Source: Candidatus Woesearchaeota archaeon
GTDB taxonomy: Archaea; Nanobdellota; Nanobdellia; Woesearchaeales; 0-14-0-80-44-23
Assembly (NCBI GenBank): GCA_038874135.1
Contig: JAVZCZ010000001.1
Coordinates: forward strand, 320,001 to 384,000
DNA length: 64,000 nucleotides
Direction: 5' to 3'
Both the position numbers and the translations under genes were made by a program. The notes under the pieces were generated by a model that ran no database searches, had not been told where the DNA came from, and saw only the letters and a program-made list of their open reading frames with translations. Positions 22,632 through 28,600 of this stretch are shown here, piece after piece. Positions within the stretch are counted from its first letter, which is position 1. Each line of letters starts with the position of its first letter.

Positions 22632-25600
22632 GAAGAAAAAAGAAAACCGGACTGGGAAAAAAGAGGTGGATTTTTGAGATTAGAAAAATTCAGCTGCTAT
22701 ACTTGTTAATAGCGTTCCTGCTCATAATATACGGATTTTTCCCATCTGATAAGGAGGCTTACTTCGGCTTTAAGGCATTTGCCTACACCTGCACCATTTC
22801 AAGCATAACAGAATCCTCAAATTATGCCTACGCTTCTGGAACGAATGTGTATTATGCAAATTTGGGAACTGGAACATTCACAGTGAATGTTGATGCTGCA
22901 ACTAACATTGGAGACTGCGAGGGAGGAACTGCAACTGTTTATAATGTTCAGTTTCCTAATACTGTAAGCTCCGGAGGATTAGACAGTGCAAGCCCGTGGG
23001 CTTGGAGTTATACTTTTACCTCTGGAAACACGAACAGCTATCTGTCTCAGTGGGTAACTTGCACCTATCAATGCACATATAATGGAGATGTGTGGTATCC
23101 CAGCATGAACAGCATAAACACTTTCAATGTTTATTACGATAGTGCAGCTCCAACAATTGGCGCACCAGTAATGTATGCTGGGACAAGAACTGGAGACTCT
23201 TCAGGAAGCTACTTTAAGGGCACAATAAGCATTAGAAGCACAATCTCAGATTCTGGCTCGGGAATACTAAATCCGAGCTGTATGGTGAGCATAAACGGGG
23301 GGGCCTGGACAAGCAGTGGAGTAACACAGGATGCTAGCTACTGCTACTATAATAACTATGCTCCTGGAGCAGATTTCAATATCAAATTTAATGTGAGCGA
23401 CAACACCGGAAGGACTTCTGCCAGCAGCACTTCAACATTTTATTATGATGCAACAGCTCCGACAACTAGTGTTTCAGCTGTTCTGAAGGGCACCTCAACA
23501 TCATACACTTTTAACACCTGGACCAAGAGCAACATAACTGTAAATGGGTCCTACTGTTCTGACGCTGGCTCGGGATGCTATGCTACTCATGTATGCGTTG
23601 ATTCAAGCAACAGCTGCATTCCCTCATCAAATCCAATTCCAATAGATGTAACCTGCAGTGCTGGAAGCGTCTGCACGCAATATGTAAGATACAACAGCAC
23701 TGACGCTCTTGCAAATTATGAAATTACTAAAAGCTCAACAATACTAATAGATATGCAAAGCCCGACAACCACGGCAACAGCAGTAAACAGCACCGGAGCA
23801 AGCTACACCTTCAACACCTGGACAAAAAGCCCATACGTAAACGTAACACTAACATGCAACGACGCCTCAGGCTCAGGATGCTCACTCACACAATACTGCA
23901 CAGACACAACAAACACCTGCACGCCAACCACAACATACACCACACCGGTACAAATAAACGCCCAGGGAATATCATACATAAGATACAACAGCACAGACAA
24001 CGCCGGAAACACAGAAACAACCCAAAGCAAAACAATCAAAATAGACACAACAGCGCCTACAACAAGCATAAACCCTAACGGACAGAGCTGCTCAGCAACC
24101 CAGCCGTCAGTAACTCTCTCGTGCTCAGACTCTTACTCCGGATGCTCAGCAACATACTACAAGATTGTAAGTGCTGCAACAACCTGTGATACAACAGGCA
24201 TGAGCCTCGCAGCTGGAAACGTCCCTGTTAATTGCACACAGGGCTCATACTGCACAAATAAGATATGCACATACTCAGTAGATAATGTAGGCAACTCTGA
24301 AAGCGTCGTATCCTCAAACATTTACTATATAGACCTTGCAGGTCCAAATGCGCCAACAGGGCTTTCGCCATCTGGCTCCTGTCTTGGAACTTCAACTCCT
24401 TCATTATCTTGGAGTGCACCCTCAGATGTTGGCTGTTCCTCAGTTGCCGGCTATCAGGTTGAGATTTATACAACTTCTGACTGCAGCGGAACTGCGCTCC
24501 AAACTGGCTATCCGAGTTCAAACAGCTGGACTCCAAGCGCTCTATCAACAGGCACATATTCGTGGAGAGTAAAGGCAAAAGATGCTCTAAACAATTGGGG
24601 TTCCTGGAGCGCCTGCGCATTAATGTATATTGATGTAAGCGCTCCGAGCACTACAATAAGTCCTAACGGAAGAGCTTGGAACAACACTGATGTTACAGGA
24701 ATAATCCTTTCAGCTTCGCAGGTGGGCTGCGGTTCTGCAGGCTCAACATATTATAAGGTTGTAAGCTCAGGAACGGTTTGCAACACTTCAGGAATGAGTA
24801 CTTATGCAGCTCCATTTGACATAACCTGCCCAGCCGGTTCAGTATGCACATATAAGGTCTGCTATTACAGCACTGACATCTATGGAAATACTGAAACCTT
24901 GAAGTCATCAAACATCTACTATATAGACAAGCAGAACCCGAATTGTTCAGTATCAGCCATATCAGAAGATTCTGGAAATTCGTATCAGTATGTTTCTGGA
25001 ACCACAATATATTACAGCAATACCGACTCGCGCGCTGGAAGCTTCACTGTTAATGTTTCTGCTTCAGACGGCTCTGGCTCTGGAATTGCTAAGGTTTATT
25101 TCCCCGAAACTGTCTCATCTGGCTTTAATGATACTGCCGCACCATACTCTCTACAGTACAGCTGGGATTCCTCAGACACTTATTCTGGAACTGCCACGAT
25201 ATATGTATATGACAGTGTAAACAATTACAATAGCTGTACATTCACAATAGTTAGAGACATAAGTGCTCCATCAGGGGGTAGCATAAACTATTTCAGCGGA
25301 GTTACAAATGTTGTAAATCAGCAAATCAATGTTAGCTCCGGTTCTGATTCAGAATCTGGAGTATACACTGCACAGCTTTACAGGCAGTCCGCAGTCCTCA
25401 ACATTGGAGATTACACTTGCGGTGCTTATGGAGCCCTTACAGCAGTAGGTAACAGCTCTCCAATTAAGGATTATGTCCTTGACACTTTAAGTTCGGGTTA
25501 CTGCTACAAGTACATCTATAATGTTAGCGATAATGTCGGTAATGTTGTGAGCTACACTTCAAGCAATGAGATTAAAGTTGATACTAATACGCCGAGCATA

Positions 25601-28600
25601 ATTTTTGTACCTCCAACAGATGGGGATGGAACTGCTACAAATAGAAATTACACTTTCATAAATGTAACTTCTGACAAGGTATTGAGTTCTGCAGTTTTGG
25701 AGTGGAGCGGCACAAATGAGAGCATGTTAGGCTCGGGAAATAACTGGTACAAGAACAAGACAGGACTTGCTCAGGGATTATATACTTATAAAGTGTATGG
25801 TAACGATTCTGTAAATAATTGGGGAGAATCTTTGCAGAGGAGCATAATGATTGACTGGACCTCGCCAGCTACATCATTCAATCCCTTAAATCAGAGCTGC
25901 TCAGCAGCACAGCCGACAGTAAACATAACCTGCACAGACAACCTAGCAGGATGCAACAAAACATACTACAAAATAATAAACTCCACACAAACCTGCAACA
26001 ACACAAACATCATAGAATACACAACACCCATACAAATAACCTGCCCAGCAGGAGAATACTGCCAACAGAAAATATGCGCCTACTCCACAGACCTTGCAGC
26101 AAACCAGGAAACAATAAAACAATCGGGAAACTACACAACAGACCTCGCAGGACCAAACCCGGTAACAGGACTAAACCCAACAAACAACACACTACTAAAC
26201 CAAAGCAGCATAACCTTCTCTTGGAATTCGGCGTCTGACATTGGATGCGCAGGTATAAGCAACTACACTATCAACATCTACTCTGATGAAGCGTGCACAA
26301 GCCTAACACACACCAATACTACTACACTCACAACCTATGCTATAATACTAAGCGACGGAACATACTATTGGAAAGTTGCAGCAGCAGATGCATTAGGCAA
26401 CATGGGAAGCTGGAGCAACTGCACAAAATTAATAGTGGATACTACTCCGCCGAACACTTCATTTGTTCCAAACAGTCAGAGCTGCTCAGCAGCACAGCCG
26501 ACAATAAACATAACCTGCACAGACAACCTAGCAGGATGCAACAAAACATACTACAAAATAATAAACTCCACACAAACCTGCAACAACACAAACACCATAG
26601 AATACACAACACCCATACAAATAACCTGCCCGGCAGGACAATACTGCCAACAGAAAATATGCGCCTACTCCACAGACCTTGCAGCAAACCAGGAAACAAT
26701 AAAACAATCAGGAAACTACACAACAGACCTCGCAGGACCAAACCCGGTAACAGGACTAAACCCAACAAACAACACAATGACTAATGATGACACTCCAACA
26801 CTATCCTGGAACGCAGCCTCTGACATTGGATGCGCAGGTATAAGCAGCTATCACCTAGAAATATATAATGGAAGCGGATGCTCGCAGCTGCTCATCTCAA
26901 CTTCAACAACCTCAACAGAATATAACACGGCACATCTTGAAGATGGAAACTATTCCTGGAGGGTTTATGCTGTAGACGCATTTGGAAATATTGGAGCCTG
27001 GAGCAACTGCAGTATAATAAAAATACACACTCAGGGACCGCCATGCGCTGTTACTAGCATAAGTGAAAATTCAGCATTTGCCTATACTCTTCAAAGCACA
27101 ATATATTACAATAACAAGTCCTCAGGAGCCTACACTGTAAATGTTGAGGTCAATAATTCTGGAAGCGGAATTGCAAATGTTACATTCCCGGCAGCCACAA
27201 GCCCTGGCGGCGTAGACTCTGTAAGCCCGTATTTCTGGGATTACAATTTTAATTTGGCATCATCCTACTCTGGAACTGCCACGATATACGCGTATGACAC
27301 AATTGGAAACAATGAAAGCTGCTCATTCAGCGTTTATCTAGATAATGTAAACCCCGCACTAACTATCTTAGGAGTGCCAACACAGTGGCAGGCCTCAGAT
27401 GCAACCATAAGCATTGAATGCTCTGATTCTGGAGCAGGATGCAATAACTCAAGGATTTATTATTTCATGAACCAGAGCGGCGCCCACTGCCCTCCATTTT
27501 CAGAAGCACAATACCATCAGTATAATACTCCATTCTCAGTCAGTGCTCACACCTGGATGTGCGGCTATGTTGAGGACTATGTAAATAATTCAAATCTCTC
27601 CTCCCCAATTGAGATAAGGGTTGATGAAATCCCGCCAACATCTTTAATAACAGGCCCTGCTGCTGGAAGCTGGTTCTCTTCTGACTTTGAAGTTTCAACA
27701 GCGAGTTCAGATAGCGGCGGTTCTGGATTGAACAAGTGTTATTATAAGGTTATTAGCAGTGGAGTACAAACTGTGGATTATACAGAGTATCCTTGCAATT
27801 CGAACATTACAATAACTGTTGGGAGCGGCAAAGATTGCAGGTATGATGGTGTTGATGCTTGTGAAGTTCAGATTTATTCTGAGGATGTTGCAGGGAATCC
27901 TTCTGAGGTGGACTCAAGAAATTTCAGCATAGAGTTTGGAGCTCCACAAATCACGATTTACGACCCAGGCTGTTCTTTTGATTTAACTACAATATATTAT
28001 GACATTTGGACTCTCAATGCGGGCATAAGCTCGTGCTCTTATGAGTGGAGTGCTGACGGCGTTTCTTGGAATCAGACCGGATTCAGCAGCTCAGGCTGCG
28101 TAAGGGGAGAAAATAATGTTTTGTTCAACACCTCATTATGTCGTGCTTCAGAATTTGGAAACTGTACTGTAAGAATAAATGCTACAAGTGTAGCGGGAGT
28201 TACTGGAAGCGCGAACTTCACATTTGAAGTTGATAACAAAGCGCCTCAGATTACAATTTTGTCAACAAGCTCAACTGAGATCTGGTATGGTAATCTATCA
28301 ACAGCAAACATAACTACTGCTATTTCAGAGAACGGCTGTCTGGCTAACTCGTGCTATTATGCCTTAAGCACTAATAATGGTTCAAGCTACGGGCTTTGGA
28401 AGCCGATGTCTTGCAACTCTGTAAAGAACATAAGCATTGCTGAAGAGTGCCCTGTTGAAGGACTGGACATTTGCAAGGTTAAGGTGTATGCTAACGATTC
28501 AGAACATTCGGGAAATGAAGATGAAATGGCTGGTGCTTGGGATATTGACTTTACACCCCCAACAACTGTAGATGATGTAAAGGTTCCCAGTTGGGACAAC

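Follow-up and report, generated by a model that had tools for sequence, protein, structure and literature searches.

Strand-skewed coding repeats in a giant surface-protein gene of a Woesearchaeota archaeon resemble GRINS and probably reflect strand-polarised recombination

A giant gene for a probable surface protein of Candidatus Woesearchaeota archaeon contains three stretches of about 100 codons in which at most one codon ends in T, raising the question of what process can recode part of a gene so completely. The gene lies in a window of 64,000 nucleotides, positions 320,001–384,000 of a single-contig genome of 909,956 bp (JAVZCZ010000001.1, here G000; 99.4% complete). The original prediction, made from the letters of the window, held that domain-sized cassettes of a giant adhesin had repeatedly passed through a single-stranded antisense intermediate, either complementary DNA (cDNA) or a strand displaced in gene conversion, and might be shuffled among surface genes as a means of diversification. 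A strand-specific process tied to gene conversion remained the likeliest reading, but the cDNA route and the domain shuffling were not supported. The three blocks are probably short repeats of the type named GRINS, shaped by homologous recombination with a strand polarity, such that G and T accumulate on the strand extended from its 3′ end.

The composition of the blocks was as first described. The 98 in-frame codons of 23762–24055 have A48, C43, G7 and T0 at their third positions, and T accounts for 29 of the 300 bases in 23761–24060 versus 17 of 60 in 23461–23520; the single codon ending in T is CTT both in 25892–26218 (109 codons, CTT at 26093) and in 26477–26776 (100 codons, CTT at 26678). 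Third positions in the blocks are 93% A or C, and with T at a third-position frequency of 0.353 in the remaining gene, such a T-free run has a chance of ∼3e-16 per gene. T-free runs of 111–144 codons were found in three ordinary single-copy genes inside regional skew zones as well, but these carry 16–22% G at third positions. The window stretch is also present in hot-spring metagenomes, and two independent hot-spring assemblies carry blocks 1 and 3, as far as these are covered, with paralogue-type differences only and at ∼1.5–2.5-fold the flank depth, as collapsed repeats, which excludes an assembly chimera. Runs X1 and X2 had no contigs over 22400–23683, from which nothing was concluded because the records are filtered, and the small-share runs X3 and X4 were left out.

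Two further descriptions needed amendment. The bias had been regarded as independent of amino acid content, and the gene's own diverged paralogous domain is indeed unskewed, but the amino acids shift as well, T, N, Q, K, I and P together amounting to 54–57 per ∼100 residues in the blocks versus 31–37 in the unskewed paralogues. Similarly, a domain-sized block starting at a linker describes block 1 only; blocks 2 and 3 begin ∼9 residues inside one domain and extend into its neighbour, and their limits follow copy identity.

The blocks do have near-identical copies, one in another surface gene, as the original prediction had anticipated. The partner of block 1 (23762–24046) lies inverted 328 kb away, at genome positions 672009–672293, and matches it at 97.9% identity inside a gene for a 2310-aa LamG/Ig protein where a second copy (84.5%) adjoins; blocks 2 and 3 are direct repeats, 97.7–98.3% identical over ∼300 bp at a spacing of 585. 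When the copies are aligned in pairs, the limits of the skew agree approximately with those of identity, with the exception of a tract at 744 kb that extends past its detected duplicate, and the differences between copies are few and of mixed types. The skew covers the near-identical tract that the partners share and spares the flanks, where the same homologous domains have diverged. By a GRINS-style pipeline with 150-nt windows, 14 of 14 duplicated segments of at least 200 bp were skewed and two marginal segments of 150 bp and 80% identity were unskewed. An older inverted pair with one member in the giant gene (Table 1) has third-position A+C of 0.58 and 0.62 on the plus strand; being unskewed at 79% identity, it indicates that old similarity alone is insufficient for skew.

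Homologues from elsewhere behaved likewise. Among 80 metagenome homologues of the domain, 79 had third-position A+C of 0.37–0.75 and no twin above 77% identity, and the sole skewed one (A+C 0.94) was also the sole one with a 96% twin; since 79 of the 80 are unskewed, the domain itself does not need the skew. A metagenome contig of a relative (L259, 3136–3582) has the block-1 domain twice in tandem, the copies being 96% identical and 94% A or C at third positions. The sister species G001 carries skew in the same domains, less extreme, at 52–70% amino acid identity, which points to a process that is old and persistent in the genus; one G001 contig terminates in a block-1 homologue. Together with this persistence, the patchy near-identity set in diverged homologous flanks makes it likely that gene conversion keeps the partner copies identical and is ongoing.

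All eight near-identical coding repeat families of the genome are skewed (Table 1), and they run counter to two earlier expectations, namely that copies would always be A/C-rich on the sense strand and would be restricted to surface domains. In four of the eight it is G and T that dominate the sense strand, the mirror image of the other composition, a genome-wide scan having returned equally extreme G/T-ending sense tracts, e.g. at 744, 755/759 and 771/781 kb; the skewed repeats also include a pair of HerA-like ATPase segments and a coiled-coil tandem repeat. In the HerA-like pair at 755/759 kb (1156 bp, 100% identical), the limits of the skew coincide with those of identity. At four-fold degenerate sites, the co-directional repeats have A.03, C.07, G.17 and T.72, and the head-on repeats A.71, C.21, G.07 and T.01, i.e. 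one strand loses A almost entirely and most C. The skew in this genome therefore belongs to the DNA strand, not to codons or transcription. No sequence context marked the surviving A or C except a mild excess of C before G. A search for a periodic A/C pattern in 41 genomes was left unused, because proteins rich in Lys, Glu and Ala give a confounding signal at their second codon positions. At 754401–760854, two adjoining genes with different N-terminal parts have the identical HerA-like segment in common, and its commonest differences from a G037 homologue are K>R (17) and I>V (12).

Which strand becomes G/T-rich was related to replication. The cumulative GC-skew turning point falls at cdc6, placing the origin independently of the repeats. 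A gap of 978 bp (20% GC) that contains an ORB-like motif lies directly upstream of cdc6, and 586733–588949 is the probable replication origin. The background GC skew is weakly reversed with respect to it, the leading strand being C-rich. With respect to this origin, G and T are enriched on the leading-sense strand in 8/8 families, and the inverted pair across it (343/672 kb) obeys the same rule. An inverted pair of 98 bp lying on one arm is unskewed. On balance we lean, by a small measure, towards a rule in which the G/T-rich strand runs 5′→3′ with the fork, making head-on genes look A/C-rich and co-directional ones G/T-rich; the giant gene is head-on if the origin sits at cdc6.

The closed relative G019 has no near-identical repeats and hence yielded no data on this arm rule. 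Its 1.3-Mb contig displays a silent-site A>T asymmetry running one way round nearly the whole chromosome in both gene orientations, with a strand TA skew of −0.1 to −0.5 in all 40-kb bins but one, and its GC skew has two regimes switching near cdc6 (765 kb) and near 190 kb; possible causes are the inversion of one arm, relocation of the origin and a process that acts in one direction.

A second pattern concerns single-copy DNA. The single-copy genes flanking foreign islands switch abruptly from A/C-rich on the left to G/T-rich on the right. Such mirror switches occur at a Type III restriction-modification (R-M) cassette, a Cas12a CRISPR array, low-GC islands and three variable surface genes, and are sharp at the R-M cassette (169 kb), at the Cas12a array (497.7 kb) and at 530, 675 and 744 kb. 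In 6/6 independently defined low-GC islands the right flank exceeded the left, strongly in 3 (mean +0.19, null p 0.0003). A broad single-copy zone at 9–120 kb, with a G/T-rich plus strand, is strongest at 18–36 kb and fades rightwards; chiefly A is lost on one strand there, and T-free runs of 111 and 129 codons lie in its ordinary genes.

These switches invite another explanation of polarity, in which position relative to local recombination hot spots, namely variable islands and variable surface genes, decides (A/C to the left, G/T to the right) and the match to the replication arms is chance. The sharp switches and the agreement of all six islands fit it, and the repeats at 293, 526–528, 672 and 744 kb lie on the predicted side; however, no centre is found near the three blocks of the window or the repeats at 755–782 kb, the single-copy neighbours of the latter are neutral or slightly opposite, and the copy at 531.4 kb is A/C-rich within a G/T-rich flank. 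We consider a purely hot-spot-driven polarity possible but unlikely, and the arm rule and the hot-spot rule can share one mechanism.

For that mechanism, strand-polarised recombination remains our preferred basis, and the repair genes of the genome set its frame. NucS is represented by a PF01939 match at 828 kb (E 8e-40) and PolB lies at 859 kb; in the 99.4% complete genome, MutS (PF00488), UDG and EndoV had no match. A probable EndoQ homologue at 551.8 kb scores below the family cut-off, and there is one PF00383 deaminase-domain match at 196.4 kb, such proteins usually being nucleotide-level enzymes. NucS prefers and cuts G/T, G/G and T/T mispairs and ignores A/C, A/A and C/C (PMC4838380), polymerase errors of the G/T type outnumber those of the C/A type (PMC6159521), and NucS restrains recombination between non-identical sequences (PMC5290159).

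Tentatively, conversion would start from 3′ ends pointing in the fork direction, as at collapsed forks, and the invading and extended strand would gain G and T as G:T, T:T and G:G mispairs were fixed in its favour; taken jointly, these two steps are conceivable rather than probable. The mispairs may arise in repair synthesis or exist in the heteroduplex, and NucS, the sole recognisable mismatch enzyme, would act on those pairs. At a collapsed fork the 3′ end would always be leading-sense, and in an incoming fragment bearing an island the two ends would point outward, so a single rule, a gain of G/T by whichever strand is extended at its 3′ end, could cover repeats and island flanks. That G/T-biased, strand-polarised conversion with its direction set by the fork in repeats and by outward ends at islands underlies the whole skew appears doubtful as a complete account, and we infer the chemistry of the G/T gain. 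A pure model in which NucS aborts keto:keto heteroduplex was rejected, as it predicts the wrong side at island flanks. On this account both copies are recoded together; the outcome is homogenisation with some amino acid drift, not a domain-shuffling diversifier.

Several observations weigh against this account. No mutation or conversion event was directly observed. The polarity evidence comes from one genome, and the eight families fall into ∼5 independent clusters, which brings the arm-rule p to ∼0.06, not 0.008. Single-copy DNA ignores the arm rule (plus-strand K index +0.026 on the left arm and −0.006 on most of the right arm), and polarity could be governed instead by the local A/C|G/T switches, several of the repeat loci being close to one. 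NucS is insufficient, the 86–87% identical repeats in the NucS-positive G024 and G038 being unskewed, and single-copy skew across the order does not track NucS. Silent sites are saturated relative to the sister species, so that substitution routes are unreadable, and bacterial GRINS show both signs within 1 kb on one strand (PMC8256042). Repeats of 89–95% identity in three genomes with no NucS match are unskewed too; the cases of both kinds, with and without NucS, are very few. A copy on G001 contig C73, which is not orientable to the fork, would oppose the arm rule if synteny with G000 held.

The same repeats and the same conversion could be combined with another chemistry, i.e. deamination (C>U, A>hypoxanthine) of the resected or invading 3′ tail at the temperature of a hot spring, spread by conversion. 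This amounts to the original prediction with its cDNA step removed. The direction of change on one strand (A>G, C>T) fits, the missing UDG and EndoV matches and the hot-spring habitat are favourable, and outward 3′ tails would likewise yield the A/C-left, G/T-right mirror at islands. Cytosine deaminates much faster than adenine. On the G/T strand, however, A was lost more than C (A 1–3% versus C 7%), in the single-copy zone at 10–50 kb mainly A was lost, the T:G ratio of 4:1 at four-fold sites needs transversions too, and the probable EndoQ homologue is present. Deamination is the main rival chemistry, if rather an unlikely source of the skew.

The simpler alternative in the original prediction, import from a donor with extreme codon bias, here taken as a virus or plasmid whose codon or strand bias is gene-wide, would suit the sharp edges and the strong strand skews seen in many genomes of the order. 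It is very unlikely, in view of eight unrelated families of mirror-image composition, edges that coincide with copy identity inside otherwise homologous genes, skew retained in the same domains of the sister species despite saturated silent sites, and viral contigs that gave a single weak match of 26 residues.

A reverse-transcriptase system swapping cDNA-derived domain cassettes among surface genes for diversity is extremely improbable. Adenine is the most depleted base on one strand, recalling the adenine mutagenesis of diversity-generating retroelements (DGRs), and block 1 is common to two surface genes; against this, the genome has no RVT_1 (PF00078) match and no template/variable repeats differing at adenines, both sense polarities occur, and non-surface and single-copy genes are affected. 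Nor is diversification supported, the copies being 98–100% identical, and a second strain with ∼0.5–0.7% single-nucleotide polymorphisms in the flanks had no new alleles in the displayed block parts, a weak result given collapsed contigs. Selection on codons, translation or protein sequence in the block domains is next to negligible, for the amino acid composition is shifted but skew is missing from 79 homologous domains and from the paralogues within the gene, and different repeats use opposite codon sets.

The blocks work like GRINS but are not strict members of that class, which, having been described in 2021, also removes the novelty claimed for them as a class. GRINS are duplicated regions of >500 bp with >80% identity and mean absolute GC and TA skews >0.15 (Nivina 2021, PMC8256042); they are linked to gene conversion by a mechanism left unexplained, and the survey spans bacteria, amoebae and choanoflagellates (PMC8256042). 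Our literature search returned no report of archaeal GRINS and no established mechanism. The block identities (97.9% for block 1, 97.7–98.3% for blocks 2 and 3) exceed 80%, and the skews (|GC| 0.41–0.45, |TA| 0.58–0.59 versus 0.11–0.13 and 0.08–0.10 in the rest of the gene) exceed 0.15, but in the 150-nt-window pipeline the blocks measure 360, 330 and 360 bp and the 672-kb partner 480 bp, all short of 500 bp; five other G000 segments (720–1170 bp) fall fully within the GRINS definition. GC and TA skews have the same, negative sign in all three blocks, with Thr, Asn, Gln, Lys, Ile and Pro enriched, a window-level correlation of the two skews being uninformative inside such short uniform tracts. 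Shared with GRINS are the duplicated, probably gene-converted coding tracts, the same-sign skews strongest at third positions, the abrupt edges and the drift of amino acids to Thr/Gln/Pro or Gly/Val/Cys. Unlike in GRINS, the host is an archaeon, the blocks are below 500 bp, the skews go far beyond 0.15, one partner is inverted and 328 kb off, and the sign is constant per tract and tracks the replication arm. For GRINS, replication bias was discounted on the ground that a single strand of polyketide synthase genes can show either sign (PMC8256042).

Other systems share some of these features. As in GC-biased gene conversion, which acts in concertedly evolving gene families, conversion here mimics selection at silent sites and drags amino acids along, but here the shift is from A/C to G/T or the reverse on a single strand, not between G:C and A:T pairs, and GC content is unchanged. 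Replication strand asymmetry, which includes mitochondrial heavy-strand deamination, similarly gives a G/T-rich leading-sense strand; here only repeats and the flanks of islands are affected, the background skew is slight and has the opposite sign for G/C, and more A than C is lost, unlike in mitochondrial deamination. With DGRs the blocks share adenine as the most affected base on one strand and surface genes of small archaea as targets, but there is no reverse transcriptase, no template/variable pair and no diversification, and C is purged, not gained.

As to the setting, the contig ends (1–146 and 909816–909956) share a 141-bp direct repeat of 97% identity, consistent with a circular chromosome. 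The giant gene encodes tandem Ig-like/FN3-like domains, from which a surface protein is probable and 'adhesin' would be a presumptive label. Cdc6 and an archaeal-type CCA-adding enzyme encoded upstream (Pfam scan) mark the host as an archaeon, and the best named ValRS matches, at 52–57%, are to Woesearchaeota, which suggests Woesearchaeales; a scan of genome contigs with the CCA-adding enzyme gave no match. In the window, directly 3′ of the gene, small open reading frames and the T2SSE and T2SSF genes make up a probable type IV pilus locus (31837–38692). The block domains had no Pfam match, and single-sequence structure prediction of two domains reached a pLDDT of only 39.

Table 1. Features of the window (positions in bp) and of the genome (positions in kb, and the partner of the older repeat)
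Feature	Position	Strand	Description
Block 1	23753-24055	+	101 codons, full run free of third-position T; GC skew -0.41, TA skew -0.58
Block 2	25892-26218	+	one codon ending in T in 109 codons; GC skew -0.42, TA skew -0.58
Block 3	26477-26779	+	one codon ending in T in 101 codons; GC skew -0.45, TA skew -0.59
Diverged paralogue of block 1	23450-23752	+	unskewed; 46% aa identity; internal control
Older inverted repeat	24248-24600	+	no skew; 79% identical to genome 673870-674225; control
Giant gene	22628-31837	+	3069-aa open reading frame; tandem Ig-like/FN3-like domains; Pfam Ig_Rha78A_N, Big_3_3, Big_13
T2SSE (PilB-type ATPase)	34949-36526		downstream of giant gene; Pfam match
T2SSF platform gene	36803-38692		downstream of giant gene; Pfam match
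Eight skewed repeat families	293, 343/672, 346, 526/531, 527, 744, 755/759, 771/781 kb		
cdc6	587.7-588.9 kb		origin marker
Type III R-M cassette	165.9-169.7 kb		flanks A/C left and/or G/T right
DNA methylase island	218-220 kb		flanks A/C left and/or G/T right
YcaO-containing low-GC island	297-306 kb		flanks A/C left and/or G/T right
Cas12a-Cas4-Cas1 CRISPR locus	497.5-498.4 kb		flanks A/C left and/or G/T right
Glycosyltransferase island	721.6-725.6 kb		flanks A/C left and/or G/T right

GRINS as a class being already known, what is new here is the polarity evidence, which suggests a link between the skew and fork direction. G000 offers a test case: its 0.91-Mb chromosome is closed, its origin can be located, one inverted pair spans that origin, repeats of both polarities occur and defence islands have mirror skews. 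It turns the open question of how GRINS skews originate into specific predictions on fork direction, NucS and mutation spectrum. Skewed tracts of this kind look like foreign DNA or like the targets of DGRs, so that phylogenies, codon analyses and inferences of horizontal transfer can go astray. If the account given here is true, one rule would explain GRINS, and in uncultured archaea the direction of forks and the hot spots of recombination could be read from maps of skew.

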